Notes under the pieces: generated by a model
Seen by the model: the letters and a program-made list of their open reading frames with translations, nothing else
Told to the model about the DNA's origin: nothing
The model's database searches: none
Part shown: piece by piece, positions 16,214-63,545 of the stretch
Position numbering within the stretch: position 1 is the stretch's first letter
How the letters are laid out: each line of letters begins with the position of its first letter
Program-made: the position numbers and the translations under genes
From: an uncultured Chloroflexia bacterium
Lineage (GTDB): Bacteria > Chloroflexota > Anaerolineae > Anaerolineales > E44-bin32
Direction of reading: 5' to 3'
NCBI GenBank assembly: GCA_963777165.1
Contig: CAVZPO010000027.1
Coordinates: 22,209-86,208, forward strand
DNA length: 64,000 nt

Positions 16214-17045
16214 GTGAAAGTGCACAAGGTTTGGATTGGCGTGGGCTGGAAAATAAATCACACCCTCCCTGAAGCGGAGGCCTATGCGATTGCGCTGAGA
16301 CAATTCATCAAGAGCTCACAAACCTCATTGGGGGTCTTCGTCGTCCCGCCCTATACCGTCTTGCATCGAGTGAGCAGCTTGCTGAAAGAGACGCCCATTC
16401 TGGTCGGTGCGCAGAACATGCACTGGGAAGAACGCGGGGCTCACACAGGCGAAATCTCCCCTCTGATGTTGAAGGACTGTGGGGTCACCTTGGTGGAGCT
16501 GGGGCATTGTGAACGCAGGCTCCACTTCGGTGAAACCGACAAGACAGTCAACCTGAAGACCCTGGCGGCACTAAGACATGGTCTGAAACCGCTGATCTGC
16601 GTCGGGGAGACGGCGGAGGAGGGAGAGTCTGGTGCTGCATATCCGGCACTTGCTCGTCAAGTGAGGATTGCCCTGCGCGGAGTCCCGTCTGAACAAGTTC
16701 AACACGTAATGTTCGCCTATGAGCCAGCACGCGGCTATCGGAGACGGCGGAACCCCCGCCGACCCCGATTCCGTGGGGGCCGCTGTTGCATGGCTGCGCT
16801 CGCAAGTTGCGGATGCCTACACTGAACAAGCGGCAGGTGAGATCACCATCCTGTATGGTGGGGGCGTGAGCCAGGAAAACGCCCGCCTCTATCTGTCACA
16901 GCCCGGGGTTGACGGTTTGTTCATTGGTAGGGCGGCGTGGAAGGCGGAGGATTTCGTCGCCATCATTCATTCGATAGCAGTGCGGGCGGCCGAGACAAGG
17001 CCTGGAAAGGACATTGCTGACCATGAAGATACTGATCGGAAGTGA
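16214..17045 (+). CDS. Triosephosphate isomerase-family paralogue, with one frame break near 16730
   Basis: ORF 16214..16825: VGAQNMHWEERGAHTGEISPLMLKDCGVTLVELGHCERR...ICVGET...FAYEP. It continues in ORF 16719..17045: AIGDGGTPADP...ILYGGGVSQENA...GLFIGRAA. Confidence 0.75.
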
Positions 17046-17481: not shown

Positions 17482-17725
17482 CAAGGCTGTGACACTCTCT
17501 CTTGTCTTTGACCGTGCTGCGGCGAGGACCAACGCGAAAGAGGGGCGCACAACATCTTCAGGACGGGGAAGGAAGCCCCTTACGTCAAGGGCTGGAATAC
17601 CGAACGGAGGCCCCATCGTGAGACTGCTGGCCAGTTCTGAGTTCCTTCCCCTTGGCGGGTTGAAGAGGCTGGCAGAGGTTACTGGGCGCGAAACGAAGAC
17701 GGTGAGCCGAAGGAGCCTTTTGCCA

Positions 17726-18716
17726 ATGATCACAGAAGAAACGACCCCGGTTCCGCACGTAGTCTTGGGCCGCAGCGGAATTACCAGCACCCGTCTCGGC
17801 CTGGGATGTTCCATCTGGCCGCTCAAAATCCCCTATCCCCAAGTCGTCGACACTCTCCGGACTGCCCTTGACCTGGGTATCCGTCACATCGACGTGGCGC
17901 CCATTTACGGCACGGAGGAGATCGTCGGGCGCGCCCTACACGACCTGGGCATCCCGAAAGATCTTGTATTGGTGACGAAGACTTGCGCCTACAGGGGAGA
18001 ACTTGGAATTCTGTACCGTGAGTACTCCGGCGCGACAGTCTACGAATCGGTTGAAAGAAGCCTGCACAGGCTCCAGGTTGACCGCCTCGACATCGTGCAC
18101 CTTCACGATGTCGAACCCGAAGATCTGCCCCATATCCTAAGCGAGAAGGGGGCCTTGAGGGCCCTGCTTGACCTGAAAGCCCGAGGCGTCATCCGATCTA
18201 TTGGAATGGCCACGCAGTCACTCGTGGCGCTGCAAGCCGCCATAGACACAAACGAGGTTGACCACATCCAGGCCTATCACAGCTACACGCTTCTGAACCA
18301 AGATCTGATGCTGAGCGTCTGCCCCAGAGCTCGAGGAAAGAACCTGTCGATCCTGAACAATGCGCCATTCGCGGGCTTTATCCTCGCCACGGGTCCTGTA
18401 CCGGATGCCGCGCTACAACTACCGGCTTGCCGCGCGCCCCGTAACGGAGGCTACGCGACGTCTTGAGGAAGTCTGTACACGCAAAGGCGTCTCTTTGGAG
18501 ACGGCGGCCCTGGCCTTCTCACTCAAGAACCCGGAGATCGATGTCACGGTTGTGGGGGCAAGCACACCGGAGAAACTGCGCAGGCGGGTAGAGGCTTTCC
18601 AGGCGCCTCTTGAGAAGGAAGACTTCGCGGAGATGATCCTCGCTGCGGGTGGATCGTTTCCCATTTCATCGCCCTTTGCCGGCAAGAACCCCTACAAGGA
18701 CGACCGAGGGCTATGA
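17726..18716 (+). CDS. Aldo/keto reductase, with one frame break near 18405
   Basis: ORF 17489..18466 from Met at 17726: MITEETTPVPHVVLGRSGITSTRLGLG...IRHIDVAPIYG...LHRLQVDRLDIVHLHD. The C-terminus continues in ORF 18360..18716 (...RYNYRLAARPVTEATRRLEEVCTRKGVSLETAALAFSL...VVGAST). Confidence 0.75.
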
Positions 18717-19482: not shown

Positions 19483-19718
19483 GTCAGCACCCAGGTCCCC
19501 ATGGTCAGCCCGCGGAGGGAACCGTGAGGACTTCAGTTATCGCGTAAACTCAAGCCGCGCCGATATCGAGGCTCCCATTGGCGGTCGGGAGGGCCCACGA
19601 CAGGCCAGTCGGGCCGGGTCCCGCCAGCGCTCCCTCCAACTCCCAACTCTTCGCAGCCGTCATCCCACAGGGGGTCGACCGCGGCGCTCTAGCCCGCGTT
19701 GGTCCGCGGCATACCGCA

Positions 19719-19795
19719 GGCTCCCCCAAGTGGCGGAGGCACACACTCCCCGGCCGATGGATGCGGCCGGGGAGCCTCTCCGGTAGAATAGGTTG
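19719..19795 (+). repeat. Intergenic box-plus-hairpin repeat, copy A (intact)
   Basis: CTCCCCCAAGTGGCGGAG (19721-19738), then hairpin CTCCCCGGCC-GATGGATGC-GGCCGGGGAG (19746-19774), then TAGAAT (19784-19789). It lies 75 nt upstream of hup. Confidence 0.85.
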
Positions 19796-19863
19796 ATGCC
19801 CCGCGCCGGCGGATCCACGCCTCCATCCCGTAGCTCATCAGCGGTTGGCATCAAGGAGCGCAC

Positions 19864-20172
19864 ATGGCGAGCAAGAGAATGAGCAAGGGTCAATTCGTGA
19901 CCGCCGTCGCCGAGAAGAGTGGTCTGACCAAGAAGGAAACCAACGCGGCGCTGGAGGCGATCACGGCGGTCGTCACGCGCGAGCTCGGCAAGAAGGGGCC
20001 TGGAGAGGTCGTCTTCCCGGGCCTGCTCAAGCTGACCGTCGTCAATAAACCTGCCACGCGCGAGCACGAAGGTATCAACCCCTTCACCAAGGAGCCGATG
20101 ACCTACAAGGCGAGGGCGGCGCGCAAGGTGGTGAAGGTGCGCGCCCTTAAGACGCTCACCGACGCCGTCTGA
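19864..20172 (+). CDS. hup: HU/IHF-family nucleoid-associated DNA-binding protein
   Basis: ORF 19864..20172: ...KGQFVTAVAEKSGLTKKETNAALEAITAVVTREL...PGLLKLTVVNKPATREHEGINPFTKEPMTYKA. An AAGGAG RBS is present. Confidence 0.9.
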   Translation: MASKRMSKGQFVTAVAEKSGLTKKETNAALEAITAVVTRELGKKGPGEVVFPGLLKLTVVNKPATREHEGINPFTKEPMTYKARAARKVVKVRALKTLTDAV

Positions 20173-20420
20173 GCTTCACGAGGTCGACAGCCGCGTTCGT
20201 CAAGAAGTGGCTGGGGTTCTGTCTTGCAGACGAGCCCGATAAGGGAGAATCCGAAGGACCCATTCCCTGGGTGACCAAAGGGGGTGGGTCCGGTTCGCGT
20301 CCGGCGCTCACCCGGTCCTGGTGGCCGCCGCAAGCCACACGATGCCGTCGGGCTCCTGACAACTGATCGCCGACCTGCGGCGGCGCTTCCAGTGCGCAGG
20401 CTTCGGCGCCGACGAAGCAA

Positions 20421-20457
20421 CACGAAACCGGGCCGCGCGAACCCTTGCGCGGCCCGG
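20421..20457 (-). terminator. Rho-independent terminator (11-bp GC stem CCGGGCCGCGC/GCGCGGCCCGG, then TTTCGTG on the minus strand)
   Basis: Read directly. It lies 40 nt downstream of the small minus-strand gene ending at 20497. Confidence 0.6.
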
Positions 20458-20496
20458 ACCGACTCTCAACCCCAGGGCCCCCACGCGATCGAGCCG

Positions 20497-20667
20497 CTAG
20501 AGATTCCTGGTGCGTGTCGCCACCAGCATCAGGACCAGCCCGATGAAGACAAACCAGAACGCGTATGCGCTCAAGCCGGCCACATTACCCATGTAGCCAA
20601 GGAGGCCAAGCAGTCCCAGGAAGAAGGCTATCCACCAAGTGATGTTCTTCGGAGGGCTAAGGTGCAT
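20497..20667 (-). CDS. Small hydrophobic membrane protein (56 aa), below the ORF-track length cutoff
   Basis: Own translation: MHLSPPKNITWWIAFFLGLLGLLGYMGNVAGLSAYAFWFVFIGLVLMLVATRTRNL. AAAGGAG lies 8 nt upstream and a terminator lies downstream. Confidence 0.6.
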   Translation of the reverse strand: MHLSPPKNITWWIAFFLGLLGLLGYMGNVAGLSAYAFWFVFIGLVLMLVATRTRNL

Positions 20668-20865
20668 TGTCGCATCTCCTTTGACATTGACGTCTCTTCG
20701 TGCGGCGTCCGACGTTCGGCCCAGGTGCGGCAGGAAGGCGGACAGCCCGCATGCGAAGTCGCGTTGTGCGGATACACGCCCATGCTCGGCCGACGGGCAC
20801 CGACCGGCTTCGGGCCAAGCGGCGCCAGGCAGGCCGGCCCACAGATCAAGGGCCGGCGGTTCGGG

Positions 20866-21278
20866 CTACCGGCGGCGTCTCGAACCAGCGGTGGCGCCGA
20901 GAATGACAAACACGAGTGCCACTCCAAGCAAGAACCCAAGGTTGTACTGGCTCCCATCGTTGTGGACTTCGTACATCTGCACATTGGAGTTGACGAAGGA
21001 CAGCACTAGGGTCACCGGGGAAATGATCCCGTGCCAAAGTCCCAGCAGGATGCCGGCGACGCGACCACGCGCATCGCGCGGTATTGACCAGCGGGTTCGG
21101 GTCCGGGCGCATTGACTTGTATGGTTACGCCGGGGACGTTGATCTGACCGCTGGGAGCGGGCGTACCGGGCGTGCCCGGGACCGGCGTATTGACTTGTGC
21201 GACGGGGCCGGGAGCACAGCCCGCGACTGCGCCCATCATCACGGCCAGAAGCGCGAAAGCGACAAGTGCCTTCCTCAT
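20866..21278 (-). CDS. Lipoprotein/membrane protein of unknown function, with frame breaks near 21090-21110
   Basis: ORF 21012..21278: signal plus lipobox MRKALVAFALLAVMMGAVAGC and a Pro/Gly-rich linker. The C-terminal part is in the frame of ORF 20866..21738: ...GILLGLWHGIISPVTLVLSFVNSNVQMYEVHNDGSQYNLGFLLGVALVFVILG. Confidence 0.55.
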
Positions 21279-21382
21279 CTCTTACCTCCAGACCCGGTCT
21301 GACGGGCCGTTGCCTGAGTTGCCGTTGCAGGAATGCGAGCTCGAAAGGCGCACGCAGCTCGTTTCTCATTCTGCGGCCATTG

Positions 21383-21436
21383 CTCCCTGACCGCATCCAA
21401 CGACTGGGGAGTATCGATCTCCGCCATTTGGGGGAG
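21383..21436 (-). repeat. Intergenic box-plus-hairpin repeat, copy B (inverted, degenerate)
   Basis: The reverse complement reads CTCCCCCAAATGGCGGAG-ATCGAT-ACTCCCCAGTCGTTGGATGCGGTCAGGGAG. The box is conserved and the hairpin arms are mutated. Confidence 0.7.
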
Positions 21437-21944
21437 ATAGTAAGGAAGGGGGGCACATCACATTCTGCCTGGCGGGCACCTGACCCGGGCTTCAAGGGCG
21501 GGCTGCGGCATGAGCACTTGAATGGGGGGCTTTCGACCCGCTCCCGGACGATGTGCTGATCGAACAGTGGAGGCCGAGGCCAGCCGATGACGTCACACGG
21601 CTCGCGAGAGCAATCCCCCGCCGGCACCGGATGCTTATCGGCCCCCCTTCCCACGATCTCCACTTGCTGCTGCAGCCTGCGGACCCAAGTGGGCTCTGGC
21701 AGAGAAACCAGGGAGAGCCGAGCCCCGGCAGCTCTCAACGCTCACTGTTGACCCGTTGGGCCGCGATTCTGCAGCCCCATTCGAGATACACTTCTGTCAT
21801 GGTCTTCTGGCCGCAGGTGAGTGGATCCGGGTCGTCGCCCGGGAGGAGCGAATGGACCGGCTAGCAAGCGGGAATCAGACCAGATGACGTGCGGGCGGAA
21901 ACAGGATCACCTCGCGCCTTTGTTCTCAGCCAGGGAACGCCCTC

Positions 21945-23573
21945 ATGCAGCGTAGCCGGCCCCGTCCGTCTCCCGGGGAAGAAGGGCGATTCCGCAGCAT
22001 CTTCGATGCCGCCGCCGACGGGTTGATCCTTAGCGATGCGGAAACCGGGGCCGTGATCGAGGCCAACCCCGCGGCGTGCGCGATGCACGGCTGCACCCAC
22101 GAGGCATTCCTCGGGCTCCTCCCGGCGGGATTCATCCACCCCGAAAGCCTGCAGATCTTCGGCAACTACCTCCGGGGCATTCGATCCGGCGCCGTGTCCG
22201 ACACGCGGGTCCAGCATGTACGCCGGGACGGCTCGACGTTTCATGCTGAATGGCGTGGTACGGCGTTCTCCTATCAGGGCCGACCGTGCCACCTGAGTAC
22301 CGTTCGGGACGTCAGCCAGCACGTCCTGGCAGACCAGCGTCTCAACCAACGGGTTGAAGCCCGCACGCGTGAGCAATCCGCGCTGTTGGAGATCTCGCAC
22401 GTCCTGGCCTCGACGCTGGAACTCCAGCCCGTTCTGATCCTGGAGCAACTGCGGGAGATCATCGAGTACACGCACGCCGGGCTTTTCGGTCTGACGGACT
22501 CAGCACTGGTTGTTCTGGCCGTACGCGGGCCACCGCAGCTCGAGCGGGCCGTGCCCCTCCAGGTCCGAGTGGAAGGTCCCGAGACGCTGGCGGCTTTGTT
22601 CAACGGTCAGCGGCCGATCCGCATCGCAGACGTTCGCGGCGCCGACCCGGCGGCGGAGTTCCTGCGCACGCTCTTGAACGGGGCTGCGGCCGCGCTCCTG
22701 GAAGGGGTGCGTGCGTGGATGTGGGTCCCCCTGGCCGTCAAAGGCCGGATCATCGGCGGCCTGGGCGTGGCGCATGCCCAGCAGGATTACTTCACGGCCC
22801 ACCACGCCGCCCTGGCCCTCTCGATGGCCGACCAGGTCGCGATCACCATGGTCAATGCCGAACTGTACGAACAAGCCCGGGCGCTCGCCGCGCTGCAGGA
22901 ACGACAGCGCCTGGCTCGGAACCTCCACGATGCGGTCAACCAATCGCTCTTCTCCGCCGGCCTGATCGCCGAAGTCCTGCCGCGCCTGTGGGAGCTCGAC
23001 CCGGTCGAGGCGCGGCAGTCCTTGGAGGACCTGCGCCGGCTCACACGCGGTGCCCTGGCCGAAATGCGCGAGCTGTTGGCCGAGCTGCGGCCCTCGGTCC
23101 TGACCGACAGCAGCCTGGGCGACCTGCTGCGCCAGTTGGCCAGCGCCTTCACCGGCCGCACGAATGTTCCGGTTCGCGTGGCCATCGCCGGGGAACATGT
23201 TCTCTCCGCAGGAATCCAGGTGGCGCTCTATCGGATCTGCCAGGAAGCGCTCAACAACATCGCCAAACACGGCGGTGCCAGCCGCGTGGAGATCAGCCTG
23301 GACTATGATGCCGGTGCGGCCCAGGCGCCTTTGCCCCTTGCCCTCGCCGGCGTCCCCCCCATGATTGCGGTCAACTCGGTGGAGTTGCGGATACGCGACG
23401 ATGGCCAAGGCTTCGACCTCACACAGCCTGCGGGCTCCGGTCACTATGGTCTGGGCATGATGCGCGAGCGCGCCGAAGCCGCGGGCGCGCGGCTGACGGT
23501 CACCAGCAGTCCGGGGCAAGGAACCGAAATCTCCGTGCATTGGCAAGCTGCTCCAGAAGAGGAGGCTCGATGA
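21945..23573 (+). CDS. Sensor histidine kinase: PAS - GAF - HisKA_3 - HATPase_c (NarL-partner type)
   Basis: ORF 21945..23573, intact, 542 aa. PAS: FRSIFDAAADGLILSD. H-box: RLARNLHDAVNQSL. ATPase: ELRIRDDGQGFD...GLGMMRERAEAAGARL. Confidence 0.9.
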   Translation: MQRSRPRPSPGEEGRFRSIFDAAADGLILSDAETGAVIEANPAACAMHGCTHEAFLGLLPAGFIHPESLQIFGNYLRGIRSGAVSDTRVQHVRRDGSTFHAEWRGTAFSYQGRPCHLSTVRDVSQHVLADQRLNQRVEARTREQSALLEISHVLASTLELQPVLILEQLREIIEYTHAGLFGLTDSALVVLAVRGPPQLERAVPLQVRVEGPETLAALFNGQRPIRIADVRGADPAAEFLRTLLNGAAAALLEGVRAWMWVPLAVKGRIIGGLGVAHAQQDYFTAHHAALALSMADQVAITMVNAELYEQARALAALQERQRLARNLHDAVNQSLFSAGLIAEVLPRLWELDPVEARQSLEDLRRLTRGALAEMRELLAELRPSVLTDSSLGDLLRQLASAFTGRTNVPVRVAIAGEHVLSAGIQVALYRICQEALNNIAKHGGASRVEISLDYDAGAAQAPLPLALAGVPPMIAVNSVELRIRDDGQGFDLTQPAGSGHYGLGMMRERAEAAGARLTVTSSPGQGTEISVHWQAAPEEEAR

Positions 23574-24214
23574 CGTCCCCCTCCCCACGCATCCGCGTTT
23601 TGGTCGTTGACGACCATGCGATGGTCCGCCGTGGGCTGGCGACCTTCCTCAAGGTCTTTGAGGACCTGGAACTGGCGGGCGAAGCCGCCGACGGGCAGTC
23701 CGCTATTCAGCAGTGCGCGGAACTCGAGCCGGATGTTGTCCTGATGGACATGGTCATGCCGGACATGGATGGGGCCGCCGCGACGCGCCTCATCCGTCGC
23801 CAGTCCGAATCGATTCAGGTCCTGGCATTGACGAGCTTCAAGGAGGAAATCCTGGTGCAGAGCGCGCTGCAGGCCGGTGCCATCGGCTATCTACTCAAGG
23901 ATGTGTCGGCCGACGAATTGGCCCAAGCCATCCGCGCGGCGCATGCCGGCCGCGCCACCCTCTCTCCCGAAGCAGCACAGGCGCTGGTGCATGCCGCCTC
24001 CCAGGCTCCGAGACCGGGCTCGGATCTGACCGAGCGCGAGCTTGCCGTGCTGGCCCTGATGGTCGAGGGGTTGAACAACACACAGATCGCCGCACGGTTG
24101 AGCGTCAGCCCTTCCACGATCAAATCCCACGTCAGCAACGTCCTGTCGAAGCTCGGCGTCGCCAGCCGCACGGAAGCCGTCAGCCTGGCACTCCGCAACC
24201 GCCTGGTCATCTAA
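23570..24214 (+). CDS. NarL/FixJ-family response regulator (REC plus LuxR HTH)
   Basis: ORF 23540..24214. The Met at 23570 overlaps the kinase stop (ATGA). Sequence: RVLVVDDHAMVRRGL...VVLMDMVMPDMDG...LTERELAVLALMVEGLNNTQIAARLSVSPSTIKSHVSNV. Confidence 0.9.
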   Translation: MTSPSPRIRVLVVDDHAMVRRGLATFLKVFEDLELAGEAADGQSAIQQCAELEPDVVLMDMVMPDMDGAAATRLIRRQSESIQVLALTSFKEEILVQSALQAGAIGYLLKDVSADELAQAIRAAHAGRATLSPEAAQALVHAASQAPRPGSDLTERELAVLALMVEGLNNTQIAARLSVSPSTIKSHVSNVLSKLGVASRTEAVSLALRNRLVI

Positions 24215-24224
24215 GCCCCGTCCG

Positions 24225-24290
24225 TGCCTCCCCCAAGTGGCGGAGACAAACACTCCCCGGCCGATGGATGTGGCCGGGGAGGAATAGGCG
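24225..24290 (+). repeat. Intergenic box-plus-hairpin repeat, copy C (intact)
   Basis: CTCCCCCAAGTGGCGGAG (24228-24245), then hairpin CTCCCCGGCC-GATGGATGT-GGCCGGGGAG (24253-24281). It starts 11 nt after the regulator stop. Confidence 0.85.
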
Positions 24291-24302
24291 CATCATGAGC
24301 TT

Positions 24303-24675
24303 ATGACCCGCGTGTTTCTCGCCGATGCTCAGCCCGATGAGCGCAAGGCTCTGCGAATCGTGCTGCGAGACCTCAAGATGGAGATCGTCGGCGAAACCGC
24401 AGATTGGCCAACGACGTTGGCCAAGGCTCCCAAGACCGGGTTGGACATGTTGCTCGTGGATTGGGGGATGCTCCCCACCGAGATTGGGAGTGAAGGCCCT
24501 GGCTGACCTGCGCCTGGCCTGTCCCATTGCGATCGTGGTGGTCCTCATCAGCCATCTGGATGCCCGGCACCAGGCTGCGCTCTCCGCTGGAGCCGATGTC
24601 TTCATCAGTAAGGGCGAGACCCCCGAGCGTGTGGCCGAACGCCTGCAATCCGCAGCGGATAGTGTTCGCACGTAG
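24303..24675 (+). CDS. Stand-alone receiver-domain protein (CheY-like), with one frame break near 24485
   Basis: ORF 24303..24506: MTRVFLADAQPDERKALRIVLRDL...DMLLVDWGM. It continues in ORF 24325..24675: ...VKALADLRLACPIAIVVVLISHLDARHQAALSAGADVFISKGE. Confidence 0.7.
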
Positions 24676-24780
24676 GTTTCCCGGCGGATGGCTTTGAGCC
24701 CCGCACATCCATCCGCCCCGGGTGCCGCCGGAAACCGATCAGCCGATTTCATCGAACAGGAGGAGCAGGAGGAGCGAACC

Positions 24781-25020
24781 TTGAATAAAGACATCTTCGA
24801 AGGCAAATGGAAACAAGTCCGAGGCGAGGCAAAGGCCTGGTGGGGCAAGCTCACCGATGACGACTTGGATCGGGCCGCCGGCAAAGTCGACGTTCTTGCC
24901 GGCCTACTTCAGGAAAAGTACGGCTACACCCGCCAGCACGCGGTGGACGAAATCGATAGGCGCGTGACGGAGTATGAGGCGGGTCTGAAAGCCAAGACCG
25001 CCCCCCTCCGCAGCAAGTGA
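24781..25020 (+). CDS. CsbD-family general stress protein
   Basis: ORF 24688..25020. TTG start at 24781 follows GGAGGAG. Sequence: NKDIFEGKWKQVRGEAKAWWGKLTDDDLDRAAGKVDVLAGLLQEKYGYTRQHA. Confidence 0.8.
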   Translation: MNKDIFEGKWKQVRGEAKAWWGKLTDDDLDRAAGKVDVLAGLLQEKYGYTRQHAVDEIDRRVTEYEAGLKAKTAPLRSK

Positions 25021-25120
25021 TCGGGGCGGGTCAACCGGTCCTTCTCGTCGGAGAAGAACCTGGCATCAAGAACGAGCGCGATCCTGTGCAATTTGCACAC
25101 TCACACTTGAGGAGAATGCG

Positions 25121-25376
25121 ATGAACATCATTATCTATCTGGTCGCTGCGGCGATCGTCGGCTGGGTGGCGAGCGAAATCATGCACGACCGTGCCAGCCT
25201 GTTGATGAACATCCTCGTCGGCGTCGTCGGCGCCTTCCTGGCCGGCTACTTCCTTAGCCCGATCTTCAAGGTCGGGACGATCAACGATGCGGTCAACCTT
25301 CCCACCATGCTGGTGACGCTCGCTGGGCGCCATCATCGTGATCGCGCTCGTCCATCTCATCCGTCGCCGGGTTTAA
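25121..25376 (+). CDS. GlsB/YeaQ/YmgE (transglycosylase-associated) small membrane protein, with one frame break near 25316
   Basis: ORF 25121..25450: MNIIIYLVAAAIVGWVASEIM...ILVGVVGAFLAGYF. The natural C-terminus LGAIIVIALVHLIRRRV* is in the next frame. Confidence 0.7.
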
Positions 25377-25478
25377 CCCGGCCTGCTTTCGCCCGGGTTC
25401 GATCCACAAGGCAGGGGTGCGGTGACGCACCCCTGCCCAGGCTCTCGTAGGCGAGCACACGCAGCAAGGAGGATTAAG

Positions 25479-25895
25479 GTGACCGACAACAGAGTCTCCG
25501 AGGTTCGCACGACCCAAAGGGAACCGGAACGAGAACAGCGCATCTTCACCTTCAAGGCTACCCAGTTGGTCTGGCTGCTCTTTGGAGTGCTGGAGGCGCT
25601 GATCGCACTGCGCATCGTGCTGAAGCTGTTCGGGGCCAACGCCGCCAGCCCGGTGGCTGCGTTCCTGTATGGGTTCACCGACCTGTTCCTGTGGCCCTTT
25701 GCCGGGCTCCTGGGGACACCGCAAGCGGCCGGCATGGTGCTGGAACTCTCGTCCGTCGTCGCCATGGCGGTGTACGCCCTGATCGCCTGGGCGCTTGAAA
25801 GACTCATCTGGGTGCTCTTCTACCGCCCGCGCGGCGGACCGGTCGTGGGCGTCACAGAAACCACCAGCACGAATCAGCGCACGGGTCCTCGCTAG
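25479..25895 (+). CDS. YggT-family membrane protein
   Basis: ORF 25422..25895. GTG start at 25479 follows AAGGAGG. Sequence: FKATQLVWLLFGVLEALIALRIVLKLFGAN...FTDLFLWPF. Confidence 0.7.
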   Translation: MTDNRVSEVRTTQREPEREQRIFTFKATQLVWLLFGVLEALIALRIVLKLFGANAASPVAAFLYGFTDLFLWPFAGLLGTPQAAGMVLELSSVVAMAVYALIAWALERLIWVLFYRPRGGPVVGVTETTSTNQRTGPR

Positions 25896-25921
25896 CAGGG
25901 CCAAGATAAGCGGAGAGAACC

Positions 25922-26572
25922 ATGCTTCCAATTGGCGATGATAATAGCGCTCGAAGAACCGTGCCGATCGTTACGTACATTCTCATCCTGCTGAATGTGC
26001 TCTTCTTCTTTGTGGAGCTCAGCGGCGGCGATGCCTTCATCATGCGATGGGCGTTCGTTCCCAGCCGCTTCCTGGCCAATCCCGGAGCCGAATTCCCGAC
26101 GCTGTTCACCTCCATGTTCATGCACGTCGGTTGGGTCCACCTGGGTGGCAACATGCTCTACCTGTGGATCTTCGGGGACAATATCGAGGATCGTTTCGGG
26201 CACGTGCAGTTCTTGATTGGCTATCTGATCTGCGGGTTGGCGGCCACGGCGGCCCAGTTGGCCTTCAGCCTGGACTCAAGCATCCCGAACCTGGGCGCCT
26301 CCGGGGCCATCGCTGGCGTGCTCGGCGCCTACATCTTGTTGTTCCCGAGAGCCAGGGTTAGTGTCGCACAAGGACAGGCAGTCGTCCCAGTTCCCGCGCT
26401 GATCGTGATCGGGCTTTGGTTCGTTCTGCAGCTCTTCAGCAGCCTCGGCTCCATCGCCAGCTCGGCCGATACGGGGGGTACGGCCTACATGGCACACGTC
26501 GGAGGGTTTGTCGCCGGCGTGGTGCTGACGTTGTTGTTCCGAGGGAGCACGCGAACACCCTTGACGGCCTGA
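25922..26572 (+). CDS. Rhomboid-family intramembrane serine protease
   Basis: ORF 25922..26572: ...FMHVGWVHLGGNMLYLWIFG...GASGAIAGVLGAY...AHVGGFVAG (catalytic Ser and His motifs). Confidence 0.9.
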   Translation: MLPIGDDNSARRTVPIVTYILILLNVLFFFVELSGGDAFIMRWAFVPSRFLANPGAEFPTLFTSMFMHVGWVHLGGNMLYLWIFGDNIEDRFGHVQFLIGYLICGLAATAAQLAFSLDSSIPNLGASGAIAGVLGAYILLFPRARVSVAQGQAVVPVPALIVIGLWFVLQLFSSLGSIASSADTGGTAYMAHVGGFVAGVVLTLLFRGSTRTPLTA

Positions 26573-26821
26573 TGGCCCGCATTCGTCTTGGTGCCCAGGA
26601 ATCCCAAGGGCGACCGATGGACGACGGCGAAGAGGGTGACGAGAGGGTACTTTGGCCCCGGGTCATGGCGCTGGATCTCGCCTCCGTGACCGCACGGGTG
26701 ATGGTGGGCTTGATCGCCTGGGCCCTCAAGCCGCTGGCCTGGGTGGATCTTCTACCGCCCGCGCGGCGCGCCGGTCGTGGGCGTCACGCGCACCTCGACC
26801 ACGGATCATCGCACTCCATAG
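26571..26821 (+). pseudogene. YggT-like C-terminal paralogue or fragment, frame-broken near 26745
   Basis: ...LDLASVTARVMVGLIAWALKPLAWV, then (next frame) IFYRPRGAPVVGVTRTSTTDHRTP*. Positions 26749-26787 are nearly identical at the DNA level to 25817-25855. Confidence 0.4.
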
Positions 26822-26833
26822 CAGAGGGACGGC

Positions 26834-27007
26834 ATGGACATCGCCTCCGACAGATACAACTCGAAGGAAGACCGGCCGGGGGCGCTCTTGGCCCTGGTGC
26901 AGGCCGTCCGGGGCATGGTCGGGCGGCTGTACGGGTTCTTTGCCCTTACAGATGACGAGTGGTCGAACGTCGGCATCTACCTGGGGGGGATGAAGCAGGA
27001 CCGCTAG
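26834..27007 (+). CDS. Possible small protein (57 aa), unknown function
   Basis: Own translation: MDIASDRYNSKEDRPGALLALVQAVRGMVGRLYGFFALTDDEWSNVGIYLGGMKQDR. AGAGGGA lies upstream. No recognisable family. Confidence 0.3.
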   Translation: MDIASDRYNSKEDRPGALLALVQAVRGMVGRLYGFFALTDDEWSNVGIYLGGMKQDR

Positions 27008-27078
27008 GCATAGTGCAGCGCACTTTGCGCAAGCCGGAAAGCGCGATCGCCGGCATGAGTAGTCAAGGAGGTGACAAG

Positions 27079-27432
27079 ATGGAAGACAGCACCGAGGAAC
27101 ACAACAGCAGCTTCCAGAGTACGAAGAGCATGCTGATCGGCTTTCTGGTCGGCGGTTTGGCCGGCGCAGGAGCGATGCTTCTGCTCGCACCCCAGTCGGG
27201 AGCGGAGACGCGTGCCCAGATTCGGGAGAGAAGCATCCAGTTGCGCGATCAGACGGCCGCTACCGTGAGGAACGTGTTGGAGCAGGCTCGTGTCGAGACC
27301 GAGGAGATGGCGGCTGGCGTTCGGGAGAAGGCCGGGGAACTCAAGCATCGAGGGCAGGAGAAGCTCGTGGAGCAGATCGATCGTGCATCCGCCGCTCTCG
27401 ACGCCGGGAAGAAAGCGGTCAAGTCCGCCTAA
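27079..27432 (+). CDS. YtxH-domain protein
   Basis: ORF 26959..27432. Met at 27079 follows AAGGAGG. Sequence: LIGFLVGGLAGAGAMLLLAPQSGAETRAQIRERS... Confidence 0.75.
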   Translation: MEDSTEEHNSSFQSTKSMLIGFLVGGLAGAGAMLLLAPQSGAETRAQIRERSIQLRDQTAATVRNVLEQARVETEEMAAGVREKAGELKHRGQEKLVEQIDRASAALDAGKKAVKSA

Positions 27433-27495
27433 GGTCGCGACATCCGCAGCCCACCGTCACCCGGCGGCCCGCAAGGGCCGCGGGGGGCGGACGGC

Positions 27496-27678
27496 TTGAC
27501 GCTTGTCGCCTCAGAAAGGATCGGCACCGTGCGTTTCACCAAGAACATCGGCATGCTTCTGCTGGCCATCTTCCTCATCGCCTGGGGACTGGCCCAGCTT
27601 CTAGGATTGGGCGGCCTCTACCCTCTCCTGGCGATCCTCGCCATCGCAGCCGGCATCTTCCTTCTGCTAGGGCGTTAG
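27496..27678 (+). CDS. Small two-TM membrane protein
   Basis: ORF 27496..27678: ...FTKNIGMLLLAIFLIAWGLAQLLGLGGLYPLLAILAIAAGIFLLLGR. The start is uncertain (GTG near 27529 is possible). Confidence 0.5.
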   Translation: MTLVASERIGTVRFTKNIGMLLLAIFLIAWGLAQLLGLGGLYPLLAILAIAAGIFLLLGR

Positions 27679-27721
27679 GTCAGCCTACCCTCAGACGGCC
27701 CATGAGGGGCCCTGGCGTGAA

Positions 27722-28711
27722 ATGCGCGCGTCAATAGCAGGCGGCCTCAAGTCTTCCTCCCACCTCCCGCTGCGGGCGAAGCTGATCTTCAATGCTGGCT
27801 CCGGCCGGCCGGAAGAATCACCTCAGCAGCTTGCCGTGATTCTTTCGGAGATGCAGGACCACGATATCCTGCCCGAGGTCTATACCGTCCGCCCGGACAG
27901 CCAAGTTGAGACCATCGTGCGCAATGCCATCAAGGCGGGCATCAAACTGATCGTCGTAGCCGGCGGCGACGGGACGATCGACAGTGTCGTAGGGGCCATG
28001 GTCGGACAGGACGCAACCCTCGGCATTATCCCCACCGGTACGCGGAACAACGTCGCATTCAACCTGGGGATCGGCGAGGATATCCCCAAGTCCGTCGCCC
28101 TCCTGCGCCAGGGACGCCGGTTGAAGATCGATGTAGGCCGAGTTCACTTCGGCCGTTTCCGTCACTGGTTTCTGGAACTCGCCACGCTGGGCCTCGTGTC
28201 CGATCTCTATCCCATGGCGGATGATCTTCAGCACGGAGACCTGGGGCAGATCGGCGCATTGTTGTCGACCCTGGCCTCGGCCACGCCCTCGCGCCTGCGG
28301 GTAAGTCTGGACGGGCACAAGGTTCTGGGTACGACGGCGCACATGATCCTGGTGACAAACATGCCCTTCCTAGGGCCGCGCTTCCAGCTCTCCCCGAACG
28401 TATCGTTCAGAGACGGGCGTCTGGATGTGTTCGCATTTCCGGACATGAGCAAGCTGGGTATGCTCTCCCATGCCGTGCTATCTCGCGGTGCTCTGGTGAA
28501 GGATGCCGGCGTTGTGCACTACCACGCCAAGCACATCACAATCGCCGCCAACCCGCAAATGACGGTGCTTGCCGACGGCATCCAGTTGGGCCAGGGCTCC
28601 TTAATCGTTCACGTCCACCCTCGCGCCCTGAGGGTGGTGGCTGGCACAGTGCTTACAGGACAGGACGCGACAACAGCGAAGATCGATCCCATGCTGGCGC
28701 CCGATGGATAA
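27722..28711 (+). CDS. Diacylglycerol/lipid kinase family protein (YegS/BmrU-like)
   Basis: ORF 27722..28711: KLIFNAGSGR...LIVVAGGDGTIDSVVGAM...LGIIPTGTRNNVA. Confidence 0.85.
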   Translation: MRASIAGGLKSSSHLPLRAKLIFNAGSGRPEESPQQLAVILSEMQDHDILPEVYTVRPDSQVETIVRNAIKAGIKLIVVAGGDGTIDSVVGAMVGQDATLGIIPTGTRNNVAFNLGIGEDIPKSVALLRQGRRLKIDVGRVHFGRFRHWFLELATLGLVSDLYPMADDLQHGDLGQIGALLSTLASATPSRLRVSLDGHKVLGTTAHMILVTNMPFLGPRFQLSPNVSFRDGRLDVFAFPDMSKLGMLSHAVLSRGALVKDAGVVHYHAKHITIAANPQMTVLADGIQLGQGSLIVHVHPRALRVVAGTVLTGQDATTAKIDPMLAPDG

Positions 28712-29474
28712 TGGCACTCCCAAGCCAGTCCGTGCTCTCCCATTGACGGCCCGCGCTTCCTTCTGGTCCGCCCAACAGCGACGCCCTGTCTTTCTGCTCC
28801 TCTTGGTGATTGGATTGGTGCTGGTTCTTGCCTGGCTGCCGGGCGGGACGCGGGCATCCCTGTGGGCGGCCTTGAGCGCCCAACGTGGTCTCATCGTCTT
28901 GCTTTCCTTGTTTGCCCTGGTGACGTTGTCGTTGATCTGGTCGGCCGGTCAGCGCCTGGACACCCGGATCTTCACGCTGCTCAACATGCAGGTCTATCCG
29001 CGGTGGCTGGATCGTTGTATGTGGCTCGCCACCCAGCTCGGGAGCATGGTGGCTGCAATGATCGCCGCCTTCCTTCTCTATCTCCTTGACGACCGGCGTC
29101 TGGCTGTCGAGATCGTCTTCGGGACCCTCACGCTCTGGCTGCTGGTGGAACTCATCAAGGCGATTTCTGATCGGGACCGGCCGTTCCACACATTGGACAA
29201 GGCACGCGTCATCGGCCGGCGAGAGAGGGGCAATTCCTTTCCCAGCGGTCATACCACCCAGGTGTTCTTCCTGACCGCCCTGCTCATCCATCACTTCCAG
29301 TTCGGGGTGGTGGTCGCTGGAGCGCTGTATGCAGTCGCGGCCCTGGTCGGCCTCACGCGGATCTATGTTGGCGCGCACTACCCGCGAGACGTCATCGCGG
29401 GAGTTGTTCTTGGATCGGTCTGGGGATTACTGGCGATCCTGGTGGATCGCTATTGGCTTGTCCTTCACTTCTGA
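28704..29474 (+). CDS. PAP2-superfamily phosphatase (membrane)
   Basis: ORF 28704..29474: KAISDRDRP...SFPSGHT...RIYVGAHYPRDV. Overlaps the lipid kinase by 8 nt. Confidence 0.85.
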   Translation: MDNGTPKPVRALPLTARASFWSAQQRRPVFLLLLVIGLVLVLAWLPGGTRASLWAALSAQRGLIVLLSLFALVTLSLIWSAGQRLDTRIFTLLNMQVYPRWLDRCMWLATQLGSMVAAMIAAFLLYLLDDRRLAVEIVFGTLTLWLLVELIKAISDRDRPFHTLDKARVIGRRERGNSFPSGHTTQVFFLTALLIHHFQFGVVVAGALYAVAALVGLTRIYVGAHYPRDVIAGVVLGSVWGLLAILVDRYWLVLHF

Positions 29475-29550
29475 TGCCGCCTCCCCCAAGTGGCGGAGGC
29501 AAGGACTCCCCGGCCGATGGATGCGATGAGAGGGCCCCCGCTGTAGGATG
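29475..29550 (+). repeat. Intergenic box-plus-hairpin repeat, copy D (3' hairpin arm lost)
   Basis: CTCCCCCAAGTGGCGGAG (29481-29498), then CTCCCCGGCC-GATGGATGC (29506-29524) followed by diverged sequence, then TAGGAT (29544-29549). It starts at the PAP2 stop. Confidence 0.75.
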
Positions 29551-29877
29551 AGCTCAGTCTCCCCAGACCTCCTTGGGTCCTTTCGGGCCCGATCCTGAAG
29601 CCAACAGGCATCATGCCGGTGAGTCTTCATGGTCATCGTGCGGATTGTCGACCGGTTACCGGGGGATATTGGACTGAGTGTCTCCTTTGCCTCTCCGCTC
29701 CCTGGCAGAGGTGTGTGCGTCGAATTGGCCGTCGAGGCGATCCTGGGTGTTCTGCAGCCATCGGCGAACCTCGGGTTCCCAGCTATGCCCCACTCGGCCC
29801 GGAGCCGGCCGTCCCGGCCCCCGCTCCATGTACCTTGCAGCTGAGGTGCTGTTCCCATCCTAAGCGAGGAGAAGATC

Positions 29878-30315
29878 ATGAAGAAATGTGAAGAGGTAAT
29901 GACGAGGGGCCCCGTTTGCTGCCTGCCGACGACCATGGTCGAGGAGGCGGCTCAACTCATGAAACGCGAGAACATCGGCCCGATACCCGTCATCCAGGAC
30001 GAGCAGACACGAAAGCTCGTCGGTATCGTTACCGATCGGGATCTGGCTTTGAAGATCGTGGCCGAAGGCCGCGACGCCAAGTCCACGAAAGTGGAGGCGG
30101 TGATGACGCGCAAGGTGGTGACCTGCCGCGCCGAGGATGACGTGCAGAAGGCGCTGGACGCGATGGCCGAACATCAGTTGCGCCGCATTCCGGTCGTGGA
30201 CAAAGATGGCAGGATCCTGGGGATTATTGCTCAGGCAGACGTAGCCACGCGCGTGAACCAGCCGGACAAGACCGCCGAAGTGGTGAAGGGAATCTCCCAA
30301 GACAACAAGAACTGA
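29878..30315 (+). CDS. CBS-domain pair protein
   Basis: ORF 29878..30315: ...VCCLPTTMVEEAAQLMKRENIGPIPVI...VGIVTDRDLAL...AMAEHQLRRIPVVDKDGRILGIIAQADV. Confidence 0.85.
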   Translation: MKKCEEVMTRGPVCCLPTTMVEEAAQLMKRENIGPIPVIQDEQTRKLVGIVTDRDLALKIVAEGRDAKSTKVEAVMTRKVVTCRAEDDVQKALDAMAEHQLRRIPVVDKDGRILGIIAQADVATRVNQPDKTAEVVKGISQDNKN

Positions 30316-30502
30316 TGGATCGTTCGCTGCGGGTGATTGCGTGTCCCGGCTCCATGAGCGTTGGGTCCGGGCTGGGGGCGAAGCGACGCACAGCCTGGGC
30401 CCGTCGCCGGGGTGCATGCACCCCGGCGGCCTCCTCGACAACAGGGTGGATTAGTTCGCACCTGTCCTCCGGTGACTCCCGGGGCGTCTCGGTTGCGCTG
30501 CC

Positions 30503-30578
30503 AAGGCCTCCCCCAAGTGGCGGAGGAAAACACTCCCCGGCCGATGGATGTGGCCGGGGAGCCGCTACGGTAGGATGA
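30503..30578 (+). repeat. Intergenic box-plus-hairpin repeat, copy E (intact)
   Basis: CTCCCCCAAGTGGCGGAG (30508-30525), then hairpin CTCCCCGGCC-GATGGATGT-GGCCGGGGAG (30533-30561), then TAGGAT (30571-30576). Confidence 0.85.
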
Positions 30579-30690
30579 ATTCGTGCCCTGGATGGGCATA
30601 TCGGCTTGTCCGATCCGCGTCTTGGGTGCGGTGGGCGGCACGAAGGCCGCCATCACCGCCTCAAGCCAATCGATCAAGAGGAGGCATCTC

Positions 30691-30849
30691 ATGTTGTGGA
30701 CGATCATTGTGATTCTCGCCATCCTGTGGCTTCTCGGCTTTCTTGGCCCGAACTACATCCCCAGCATCCCTAGAATGGGCAACGCAGTCCACGTCCTGAT
30801 CGTGATCGTGGTCATCCTGGTTATCTTGAATCTCCTGCACGTTATCTAG
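30691..30849 (+). CDS. Small membrane protein (lmo0937-like family)
   Basis: ORF 30583..30849. Met at 30691 follows AGAGGAGG. Sequence: MLWTIIVILAILWLLGFLGPNYIPSIPRMGNAVHVLIVIVVILVILNLL. Confidence 0.7.
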   Translation: MLWTIIVILAILWLLGFLGPNYIPSIPRMGNAVHVLIVIVVILVILNLLHVI

Positions 30850-31171
30850 CCGGGAACACGTCAGCAGTCCGCCACGGGGCAATCTTCTGCGCCTGACCGT
30901 AGCTGCGGCTTCAACGCAGGATGCGATCGACTGGCCGACAACGGCCCGCTTCCAAGTCGAAGCGCATGTTGAGAACCCGGACCTGGCCTTGGGAGTTCCG
31001 CGCGAGCAACGCGTCGGGTAGGTGATACGTTGCGTTCCATCGGCAAGGTATCCACCCCCGTTGCTCCGCCAACGGGGGTCTTGCTTTCCCTTTGCGAGAT
31101 CCTCATGATGAGAGAGGGGATACGGCATCCTCCACCCGCTCAACCGGGTAGCTGCTGCCGACCGAATCGCC

Positions 31172-35153: not shown

Positions 35154-36011
35154 ATGTCTAGTGGGCGTATGCCACCTCCCGACCGGCGTCTGCGGGTTGA
35201 TCGTGCCAGCCCGCTCCCGCTGCACGTCCAGGTAACACAGGCTCTCCGAGACCAGATCGTGCGCGGCGCCTGGAAGCCCGGCGACCGAGTCCCGGGAGAC
35301 CTGGAATTGTGCTCCGAGCTCGGGATCAGCCGGACCACCATCCGTCAAGCCTTGGCGGAGATGGCGCACGAGGGGTGGGTGGTGCGCGAACGGGGTCGCG
35401 GGACTTTCGTTGCGCCCCCGAAGCTGACCGAGACCGCCGTCGAAAGATTGTCGGGCTTCTTCGAAGACATGGTCGCCCTTGGCTACCCGCCAATCAGCCA
35501 GGTGCTGCATCAGGAAGACCGCCCGGCCGACGAGCAGATCGCTGCCCGGCTGAACGTCAGGCCCGGGACGCGCATCGTCGAGATCGAGCGGCTGCGTTTC
35601 GTGGAGGACGAGCCGGTGGTGTTGACTACGACCTACCTGCCCCTGGCGTTGGCGCCGGGACTGGCAACGGCCGACCTCACCCGCCGATCGTTGTACGAGT
35701 ATCTGGAAACCGAGTGCGGCCTGACGCTGGCGCGCGGACAGCGCACCATCGAGGCCGTCGCTGCCGATGTCCGCCAGGCCAGGCTGCTTCGCATCCGCAA
35801 GGGCGCTCCGCTGGTATACCTGCAAAGCGTGAGCTATCTGGCGGACGGGCGGCCGATTGAGTACTACCGGGCGCTCCACCGCGGCGACCGCTCGCGCTTC
35901 GAGGTCGAGCTGGTTCGAGGCCGAGATCGCGGGGCGGCCGGATCGGACGGGGACCGCTTCGGGCGGCTGCCTCCGGGCGGCGGGACCGTCCGGCGCAGGG
36001 ACGTAACGTGA
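35154..36011 (+). CDS. GntR/HutC-family transcriptional regulator (wHTH plus UTRA)
   Basis: ORF 35154..36011: PLHVQVTQALRDQIVRGAWKPGDRVPGDLELCSELGISRTTIRQALAEMAHEGWVVRERGRGTFV. A UTRA-like C-terminal domain follows. Confidence 0.9.
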   Translation: MSSGRMPPPDRRLRVDRASPLPLHVQVTQALRDQIVRGAWKPGDRVPGDLELCSELGISRTTIRQALAEMAHEGWVVRERGRGTFVAPPKLTETAVERLSGFFEDMVALGYPPISQVLHQEDRPADEQIAARLNVRPGTRIVEIERLRFVEDEPVVLTTTYLPLALAPGLATADLTRRSLYEYLETECGLTLARGQRTIEAVAADVRQARLLRIRKGAPLVYLQSVSYLADGRPIEYYRALHRGDRSRFEVELVRGRDRGAAGSDGDRFGRLPPGGGTVRRRDVT

Positions 36012-36042
36012 CGAGTCGGAGTTCGGCGGCCAGGAGGGGTTC

Positions 36043-36783
36043 GTGACGAACAGGGAAGTGATCCGGGCCAAGGTCCGCCAGGCGGTGTATCGCACGCTCG
36101 GCCTGGAGCCGCACCTCGATCCCGCGCCCAGGCGCCGCCTCGTGACCGAGCACGACCTGCGCGGCCTGCCTTTCGGATCGGACTTCCAGGTTCCGGAAGC
36201 CGGCCTGATCACGCCCCTGGCCCGCCAGGTTGCCATGGATCGCCACATCACACTGCACAAGACATCCGCGCCGGCAACGACTACAAAGAAGCAAACGCCG
36301 CGCACACCCAATGTGGCCGCCGGAGGCAAGGCCGTCGCCATCGGCGCCGACCATGGGGGCTTCCAACTCAAGGAGACGCTCAAGGCCTACTTGCACGAGC
36401 TCGGGCATGAGGTCATCGACTGTGGGACGAACAGCACCGAGGCGGTCGACTATCCGGATTTCGCCCTGGCGGTGGCCGAACTGGTGTCGCAGGGGCGGGC
36501 CTGGCGCGGCATCTTGGTCGACGGCGCCGGCATCGGTTCGTGCATGGTTGCCAACAAAGTGCCGGACGTCAGGGCGGCCATGTGCTACGACCAGTCCACT
36601 GCCGTGAACAGCCGCGAGCACAACGACGCTAACGTGCTGACGCTGGGTGCGGGCCTGATCGGCGAGACGCTTGCCCGTCAGATCGTCAAGACCTGGCTCG
36701 AGACGCCGTTCGGCGGCGGCCGGCACGCGCGCCGCGTCGAGAAGATCATGGAGACCGAACGGCGCTTCCTGCGCAGGCCCTAG
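36043..36783 (+). CDS. rpiB: Ribose-5-phosphate isomerase B (RpiB/LacAB family) with an N-terminal extension of about 100 aa
   Basis: ORF 36043..36783. Core: [15 protein letters not shown]...[28 protein letters not shown]...[12 protein letters not shown]. Extension: amphipathic helix [16 protein letters not shown], then [10 protein letters not shown]...[17 protein letters not shown]. Confidence 0.85.
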
Positions 36784-36823
36784 GCAGCGGCGACGAAGGA
36801 CTCTGGAATTCCTAACGGGACGA

Positions 36824-37690: not shown

Positions 37691-37709
37691 CCGGCAAGGA
37701 GAAGCGCCC

Positions 37710-38348: not shown

Positions 38349-38409
38349 GTCGAGGAAACCGTCGAGCGTAGACGTTCGAACTCATCCAACGAGTCATCAG
38401 GAGGCAACT

Positions 38410-38730: not shown

Positions 38731-38838
38731 CCGGACCCTGTGGCGGTTGTCCCAGGCGGTCCCCGGCCCGTTCCGGGGGCCGCCCGGGCGGACGCACGCC
38801 GCCTCGCCGAGAGGTATGGGCGTCGAATGGAGTAGCCA

Positions 38839-40640: not shown

Positions 40641-40676
40641 GACCGATGCGCCCATTCTGCAGCAAGGCGATGACCG

Positions 40677-63489: not shown

Positions 63490-63513
63490 ACGGCCAAACC
63501 ATCGTACCCAACA

Positions 63514-63545
63514 AGCAGCCCCCATCCGGGGGCTGCTTCCTTTTC
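63514..63545 (+). terminator. Rho-independent terminator: AGCAGCCCCC-ATCC-GGGGGCTGCT followed by TCCTTTT
   Basis: Read directly. It begins 25 nt after the csp stop. Confidence 0.8.

Follow-up and report, generated by a model that had tools for sequence, protein, structure and literature searches.

A covarying palindromic promoter module of Anaerolineales as candidate signature of a general-stress or dormancy-like regulon

A repeat of about 75 nt, found in five intergenic copies in the 64-kb stretch of contig CAVZPO010000027.1 of an uncultured Chloroflexia bacterium analysed here (the window), belongs to a promoter module that is conserved throughout the Anaerolineales. The module consists of an 18-bp motif (Box 1), a palindrome with conserved core arms and centre, and a -10 hexamer, and its commonest target is a gene for a protein of a single receiver domain (REC-only). 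On balance, and with some reserve, we read the repeat as a promoter cassette that would define a general-stress or dormancy-like regulon and in which the hairpin of the promoter spacer would double as a terminator or insulator. Sludge, sediments and soils harbour abundant Anaerolineales, nearly all of them uncultured, and the literature searched yielded no description of a general stress response for Chloroflexota. The 75-nt signature would let a stress or dormancy regulon be read straight from hundreds of metagenome-assembled genomes, and it provides a short list of candidate regulators and, for binding and reporter work, a defined stretch of DNA. Stress-regulon promoter signatures are known as a kind; neither Rfam nor the literature searched contains a description of this signature, of its rigidity across the order or of the covarying palindrome over the -35 region.

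Architecture and conservation of the module

The 15-mer CCCCAAGTGGCGGAG was searched for in the window at no more than one mismatch, giving five sites (19724+, 21419-, 24231+, 29484+ and 30511+) against a chance expectation of 0.00 from 100 dinucleotide shuffles. The five-copy intergenic repeat reported in the initial annotation is therefore real. At three mismatches the search was uninformative (seven matches, 4.2 expected), and the stricter one was used instead. The copies, here called A to E (Table 1), align over about 75 nt without internal gaps and are confined to one 11-kb island (19.7-30.9 kb). A covariance model run against the window returns exactly these five at 64-79 bits, the next match scoring 13 bits; a weak match at 63497-63575 on the minus strand is an ordinary terminator-like hairpin.

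Copies A, C and E form a hairpin with a GC stem of 11 bp and the 7-nt loop ATGGATG (-31.7 to -33.4 kcal/mol, z = -2.9 to -4.0), so the hairpin proposed earlier is present in three copies, with a stem one base pair longer than the 10 bp then given. Copy B had been called degenerate and copy D devoid of its 3' arm, and the folding scores agree with both descriptions. The trailing hexamer, described for three copies at 9-20 nt, is found in all five, at a constant 9 nt past GGGGAG. Closeness to a stop codon had also been described for three copies; it is clear for two, behind the response-regulator stop (24212-24214) and the PAP2 stop (29472-29474).

Species-representative genomes were scanned with the pattern CCCCAARTGGCGGAG-N6-ACTCCCC, and the resulting loci of 8 kb (at least 119 listed, numbered with the prefix L) were searched with the covariance model and with a sequence-only hidden Markov model; all family counts below (out of 225 or 237 copies) are among the matches listed. 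At least 237 near-full copies are present in at least 119 loci plus the window, from at least 98 species-representative assemblies. Of these copies, 88 fall outside the initial search pattern and 227 are free of insertions and deletions over the 75 nt. They cluster in islands of three to six per 8 kb. The source labels are nearly all of metagenome-assembled genomes assigned to Anaerolineales, Anaerolineae or Chloroflexota, with GC contents from about 40% to 69%. Three loci come from genomes labelled Thermoleophilia, Bacteroidota and Herpetosiphon (L013, L070 and L006); their contigs of 4-12 kb carry typical module-gene pairs and are probably mis-binned Anaerolineales DNA.

Rfam 15 at gathering thresholds gave no match in the whole window, and at E <= 5 over 19600-30700 only two unrelated chance matches, neither on an element, consistent with the earlier remark that no named RNA family is recognisable. 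A set of 2.9 million viral contigs contained no match to the module, and literature searches on promoter motifs of Anaerolineae and Chloroflexi, on leaderless start-site maps and on the general stress response returned nothing relevant. Because of this distribution and of the Rfam and viral-contig results, a genome-specific mobile repeat and a catalogued RNA family are excluded.

The consensus was derived from the 225 ungapped copies, and positions are relative to the inferred transcription start, placed 7 nt after the -10 hexamer. Box 1 (CTCCCCCAAGTGGCGGAG, -75 to -58) is an imperfect dyad of 18 bp with nearly invariant 5' two-thirds; TCCCCCAA and TGG are conserved at 94-100%, and the 3' part sometimes reads GGACTAG or GGCCTAG. 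The palindrome extends from -57 to -15. Its upstream half starts with a variable, A-rich segment of 6 nt and continues with the first core arm, ACTCCCC (-51 to -45, 93-99% conserved), and four to five variable bases. The centre is ATGGATG or, in 28 of 225 copies, CAGGATG, with GGATG, which covers the -35 position from -37 to -33, conserved at 91-100%. On the 3' side, the complement of the variable bases precedes the second core arm, GGGGAGT (-27 to -21; GGGGAG at 81-92%, the final T at 65%), and a T-rich segment complementary to the A-rich one, giving the consensus tail TGTTTGTTGT. Base frequencies of 0.94-1.00 are reached in the 5' part of Box 1, in ACTCCCC and in GGATG. The view of the initial annotation that the function is sequence-specific, and more than that of a generic terminator, is supported.

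The hexamer TAGRAT had been suspected to be a -10 element, and the family bears this out: TAnnnT occupies -12 to -7 in 216 of 225 copies, most commonly as TAnGAT, with TG at -14/-13 (G at -13 in 154 of 225). In REC-only genes, the ATG is located exactly 6 nt past the hexamer in 54 of 55 listed cases. This is the classical leaderless geometry, by which the REC-only mRNA is predicted to be leaderless; Box 1 and the palindrome (-75 to -15) would then lie upstream of the transcription start. The other downstream genes have leaders of 27-90 nt with AGGAG-type Shine-Dalgarno sequences. Reading TAGGAT as the Shine-Dalgarno sequence of the REC-only genes was rejected, as the hexamer varies as TAnnAT (TAAGAT, TACCAT, TATCAT and others) and not as GGA. 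In public gene calls, REC-only homologues, including the one at L120:10001-10387, have 128, 136 or 145 residues, which puts the start codon inside the promoter; counted from the conserved leaderless ATG, the protein has 123. DUF5670 and DUF3597 genes behind the module share the leader motif ACAAATC, located around +5 to +12 and followed by an AAAGGAG ribosome site (L013, L020, L028, L030, L034, L048, L091, L100, L106 and L115), possibly as a further regulatory signal particular to these genes.

At 16-18 bp upstream of the -10 there is no TTGACA-like -35 element, and a consensus-based promoter scan calls none; positions -35 to -30 read ATGYGG. Inspection of the consensus also led us to reject sigma-54 (-24/-12) and extracytoplasmic function (ECF)-type readings of Box 1, for which neither spacing nor bases fit. 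The sequence CTCCCC-N7-GGAT is centred at -41.5, the classical position of a class II activator. Taken with the missing -35 element, we infer that initiation would depend on a factor reading Box 1 and CTCCCC-N7-GGAT, either an activator or, also possibly, an alternative sigma factor. The promoter spacer (-32 to -15) would be kept complementary to the upstream half of the palindrome. When transcription reads in from a co-directional gene ending a few nucleotides upstream, a strong GC-rich hairpin with a T-rich tail behind it would form in the RNA and would terminate or insulate the read-through, leaving each stress gene to be driven by its own regulated promoter alone. A transcript-end hairpin joined to an outward promoter, as the initial annotation had suggested, is the best current reading.

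Genes behind the module and a candidate regulator

In the listed loci, 214 downstream open reading frames were clustered and annotated with Pfam and NCBIfam. The 123-residue REC-only protein is the commonest (behind 55 copies, its gene being seen in 52 listed loci), followed by PAS-GGDEF (20), lmo0937/DUF5670 (17) and lipoprotein-like membrane proteins (11). CsbD and Transgly_assoc (YeaQ/YmgE-like) proteins follow 6 copies each, DUF3597 proteins 5, PRC-barrel, dodecin, CBS and SpoVS proteins 4 each, and HPF and HU 2 each; two clusters of unannotated small basic proteins account for 6 and 5 copies. DAGK is also among the downstream frames, YtxH was found in 39 related loci and YggT in 38. Judged from these annotations, the content is of the general-stress type that is typical of sigma-B or EcfG regulons; csbD is reported to be sigma-B-dependent (PMC2248587). 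The module goes with the gene that follows it: behind the last stress gene of the window island there is an ordinary terminator and no module. A protein search with REC-only returned 4263 clusters, and no cultured organism is named among the best 120.

Among known systems, the sigma-B regulon of Bacillota and the PhyR-NepR-EcfG regulon of Alphaproteobacteria resemble the module targets in containing CsbD, lmo0937-family, YtxH, YeaQ/YmgE-like and PRC-barrel proteins, and likewise dodecin, CBS, HPF and universal-stress-like proteins. They also have a single-domain receiver protein in the circuit and one promoter signature common to all members. The promoters themselves differ. The sigma-B and EcfG motifs established in the literature are GTTTaa-N12-15-GGGWAW and GGAAC-N16-17-CGTT, neither of which matches the consensus of the 225 copies; the module combines a TAnGAT -10 with 60 bp of upstream conservation that takes in the palindrome, and a -35 cannot be recognised in it. 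Unlike in those regulons, no sigma gene is autoregulated by the module, with only one ECF sigma gene among the 214 listed downstream genes.

The lead candidate for the factor is a putative one, the NarL-type response regulator encoded beside REC-only, together with its PAS-GAF-HisKA_3 kinase. In the window, as in 11 of 39 loci, its gene directly precedes the REC-only gene, and 38 such reading frames occur in the listed loci; the closest solved relatives of the window protein are VraR, ChrA, DevR and NarL. A similar arrangement is known from the DosR/DevR system of mycobacteria, where a NarL-family regulator and a GAF-containing HisKA_3 kinase are encoded beside the regulon, the targets are of dormancy or stress type (CBS and universal-stress-protein-like proteins) and two G/C-rich boxes are present, the proximal one abutting the -35. 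The sequences of those boxes are unrelated to the module, their spacing is about 21 bp compared with 25 bp, and the long arm complementarity of the module has no counterpart there. Regulators of this type bind dyad boxes of 16-20 bp, to which Box 1 and CTCCCC-N7-GGAT bear a resemblance only.

Pairing of the palindrome and competing explanations

Covariation was measured in an alignment (A3) made without fitting to a structure; 88 of its 150 rows lie outside the search pattern. In the palindrome arms, 206 cells are changed on both sides, compared with 109 +/- 8 after shuffling (none of 500 shuffles reaches 206) and with 75-112 when the partner columns are slid; the arm covariation score is 0.199 versus 0.138. 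Compensated variants of the core arms (CCTCCCC/GGGGAGG, ACTCTCC/GGAGAGT, ATTCCCC/GGGGAAT and ACTCACC/GGTGAGT) precede different gene families. At the variable positions, copies of one genome share an identity of 0.58 and orthologues one of 0.545, the background being 0.53. Since these positions are nearly saturated between copies, shared descent is not the cause of the covariation, and within-genome homogenisation is ruled out as well. Box 1, tested as a hairpin in the same alignment, has one compensated cell and 76 unpaired ones; its changes being uncompensated, it is a sequence motif and not a hairpin. Decay is greater in the 3' than in the 5' arm, and transitions outnumber transversions about 2:1.

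A co-directional reading frame is located upstream of 171 copies (77%) at a median distance of 32 nt, ending within 40 nt in 97 of 225, and about 30-50 copies lie in divergent regions. Where such a frame ends within 40 nt, pairing is stronger (Watson-Crick fraction of 0.72 versus 0.65, Mann-Whitney p = 0.011). Like intrinsic terminators, the module has a GC-rich stem of 11-20 bp, A-rich 5' and T-rich 3' flanks in most genomes, and a hairpin that is often a few nucleotides past a stop codon. It differs in that stem and loop sequences are conserved throughout the order, the length is fixed, the 'tail' runs into the -10 and GC-rich genomes such as that of the window lack the T tract. A stem of the intrinsic-terminator type is present in three of the five window copies. 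The initial annotation had stated that there is no U tract, which is correct for the GC-rich window genome and does not extend to the family, where a tract is present in the consensus and in one relative (L055), whose copy scanned as terminator-like. With the CAGGATG centre, the stem grows to about 20 bp and is capped by a GGA triloop, for instance at L045:1533-1598 on the minus strand (-47.9 kcal/mol, z = -10). CAGGAUG is the repeat of CsrA-binding small RNAs, a lead only, the hairpin lying upstream of the inferred start.

Several observations weigh against a regulated promoter with a terminating hairpin. G:T pairs are not commoner than A:C mismatches (362 versus 355, with a ratio of 0.7-0.9 in every context), a pattern not usually left by selection on an RNA stem. 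Pairing reaches only 67-83% per helix and persists in divergent contexts without read-in (0.65 Watson-Crick). The window copies have no T-rich tail, and copy D, which starts 5 nt past the PAP2 stop codon, nevertheless lacks its 3' arm. Conservation of the core 3' arm exceeds what pairing alone predicts, and the arm may itself be a binding half-site. The transcription start is a prediction from promoter geometry, the binding factor is a candidate, and the NarL-type regulator is adjacent in only about one third of the loci; in the long contig of L120, the REC-only gene with its module stands alone, the NarL pair being absent within 10 kb.

The palindrome might instead be an ordinary double-stranded operator with the half-sites ACTCCCC and GGGGAGT, bound by a symmetric dimer or tetramer acting as a repressor over the -35 or as an activator. 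We regard this as rather unlikely, and give the same weight to its corollary that the flank covariation is a neutral by-product of template-switch correction of a quasi-palindrome instead of a result of hairpin selection. Conservation of both core arms exceeds the level of pairing at the variable positions, the G:T and A:C counts are symmetric with moderate pairing, the spacing is rigid, and operators typically lie over the -35 and spacer, as the palindrome does. Other stress regulons are also known to have highly conserved inverted repeats, such as CIRCE/HrcA, whose repeat is likewise conserved across a large clade, linked to stress and overlapping promoters. For CIRCE, action as an operator in DNA and also at the RNA level has been reported. 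Unlike CIRCE, the module repeat is upstream of the start and has 7-bp arms with variable, covarying extensions, an asymmetric conserved centre and a separate invariant box. Half-sites 24 bp apart centre to centre are unusual for one dimer, GGATG is conserved on one strand only, and a purely DNA-level operator does not predict that pairing varies with the upstream gene. Alternatively, the palindrome might act as folded DNA, extruded as a cruciform under negative supercoiling or bound by a hairpin-specific factor, hiding or exposing the -35 and spacer. The promoter would then sense a stress-linked drop in supercoiling or energy; we consider both this mode of action and its consequence distinctly unlikely. 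If they were true, which seems just as improbable, these promoters would be natural supercoiling or energy sensors switching on an order-wide general-stress regulon. A palindrome entirely upstream of the inferred start, arms that covary independently copy by copy and lack a strand-specific wobble bias, the rigid length and the pairing retained in divergent contexts all speak in favour of such a switch. The 7-nt unpaired centre of most copies and the GC-rich arms disfavour extrusion, a known constraint of cruciform energetics, pairing is imperfect, and copy D keeps the box, GGATG and the -10 without the 3' arm. We know of no experimental precedent for a cruciform-switched promoter in a natural regulon. 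Horwitz and Loeb reportedly described, in 1988, an engineered E. coli promoter regulated by a cruciform, in which, as considered here, a -35 palindrome could be switched by superhelical density; theirs is an artificial construct, and extrusion of the module is hypothetical.

A structured RNA, either a 3'-untranslated or intercistronic element or a small RNA, with a GGA loop for a CsrA-type RNA-binding protein, appears very unlikely, even though the predicted hairpins are strong (to -47.9 kcal/mol), the arms covary, most copies follow a co-directional gene and the loop, ATGGATG or CA-GGA-TG, resembles CsrA sites. Rfam offers no match, no conserved promoter is found upstream, and box and hairpin precede the inferred start, so the small-RNA family suggested in the initial annotation finds no support. 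The unit is tied to the downstream and not the upstream gene, some copies are in divergent regions, Box 1 changes are uncompensated, and both a G:U excess and length variation are absent. The other proposal of that annotation, a mobile unit resembling repetitive extragenic palindromic (REP) sequences or miniature inverted-repeat transposable elements (MITEs) and carrying an outward promoter, is effectively excluded. The module shares with these elements and with bacterial interspersed mosaic elements that it is short, palindromic, intergenic and present in several copies per locus, and we infer that so complex a module, now preceding over 20 gene families, must once have spread by copying. It is, however, neither species-specific nor dispersed: the same sequence occurs in assemblies over the whole GC range given above, always pointing at a gene of one coherent functional set, and all five window copies are in one island. 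Saturated variable positions indicate no recent movement, the viral contigs are devoid of it, and general reading-frame scans of part of the window and of the 8-kb loci showed no transposase among the annotated neighbours. The inverted repeat is internal (model positions 21-63), and the unit ends in Box 1 and the -10 region, which lack the mutual complementarity of MITE termini. An integron attC site was rejected too, the consensus containing no GTTRRRY core, the genes behind the unit being conserved orthologues and not variable cassettes, and no integrase being seen.

Whichever way it acts, a covarying -35 palindrome without an RNA-type signature is a compact test case for promoters doubling as terminators, for natural DNA-hairpin control of initiation and for template-switch mutation that mimics structural covariation.

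The window island and neighbouring features

The five modules of the window and the genes associated with them are listed in Table 1. Copy B lies in a divergent intergenic region and is directed away from the kinase operon. The genes from csbD to PAP2 behind copy C are probably co-transcribed with the REC-only gene. CBS proteins, encoded here behind copy D, follow the module in four other loci.

Table 1. Module copies in the window, their parts and the genes of the island
Feature	Position	Strand	Evidence or remark
Copy A module	19719-19793	+	covariance model 77.1 bits; fold -33.4 kcal/mol, z = -2.9
Copy A: Box 1; stem; loop ATGGATG; -10 TAGAAT	19721-19738; 19746-19756 with 19764-19774; 19757-19763; 19784-19789	+	
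Copy A predicted start	~19796	+	
HU-like gene, target of copy A	19864-20172	+	Pfam Bac_DNA_binding
Lipoprotein-like membrane gene, target of copy B	21278-21012	-	reading frame in 'lipoTM' cluster, behind 11 copies
Copy B module, degenerate	21364-21438	-	covariance model 68.5 bits; fold z = -0.3
Copy B: Box 1 (CTCCCCCAAATGGCGGAG); palindrome region, mismatched; -10 CAGAAT	21436-21419; 21418-21376; 21373-21368	-	
Sensor histidine kinase, PAS-GAF-HisKA_3-HATPase	21945-23573	+	Pfam
NarL/LuxR-type response regulator, REC and GerE helix-turn-helix	23540-24214	+	Pfam; ends 13 nt before Box 1 of copy C
Copy C module	24226-24300	+	covariance model 74.8 bits; fold -31.7 kcal/mol, z = -4.0
Copy C: Box 1; palindrome; -10 CATCAT; predicted leaderless ATG of REC-only gene	24228-24245; 24246-24288; 24291-24296; 24303	+	
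REC-only gene	24303-24675	+	Pfam Response_reg; split by 1-nt insertion near 24478-24482 relative to L116
CsbD	24688-25020	+	Pfam
YeaQ/YmgE-like	25121-25450	+	Pfam
YggT	25422-25895	+	Pfam
Rhomboid	25922-26572	+	Pfam
YtxH	26959-27432	+	Pfam
DAGK-like kinase	27722-28711	+	Pfam
PAP2	28704-29474	+	Pfam
Copy D module	29479-29553	+	covariance model 64.3 bits; no stable hairpin, z = +2.2
Copy D: Box 1; palindrome region with 5' arm and GGATG centre retained, 3' arm lost; -10 TAGGAT	29481-29498; 29499-29541; 29544-29549	+	
CBS-domain protein gene behind copy D	29878-30315	+	Pfam CBS
Copy E module	30506-30580	+	covariance model 78.9 bits; fold -32.3 kcal/mol, z = -3.8
Copy E: Box 1; palindrome; -10 TAGGAT	30508-30525; 30526-30568; 30571-30576	+	
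lmo0937/DUF5670 small membrane protein gene, target of copy E	30691-30849	+	NCBIfam lmo0937_fam_TM 44 bits (cut-off 30); Shine-Dalgarno GAGGAGG

An inverted repeat, GGCGGATGG...CCATCCGCC, is located at 24676-24720, directly past the REC-only stop codon and before csbD, and is kept in L116; it could be an attenuator or a processing site within the REC-csbD transcript. The hairpin at 31054-31079, past the DUF5670 gene, is terminator-like. On the minus strand it reads CCCCCGTTGGCGGAG, a loose likeness to Box 1 that is probably due to chance.

Besides the REC-only gene, two further genes of the window are split between frames, one for TIM (profile positions 2-165 and 167-244) and one for an aldo-keto reductase (2-195 and 223-286). 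The split genes are at 16214-17045, 17489-18716 and 24303-24675, and so many frameshifts (three within some 8 kb) point to indel errors in the assembly rather than to pseudogenes. A microcompartment locus at 35154-41596, unrelated to the repeat, encodes two EutN/CcmL proteins, a BMC-domain shell protein and an aldehyde dehydrogenase, and includes a DeoC/LacD-type aldolase and a GntR/UTRA regulator.

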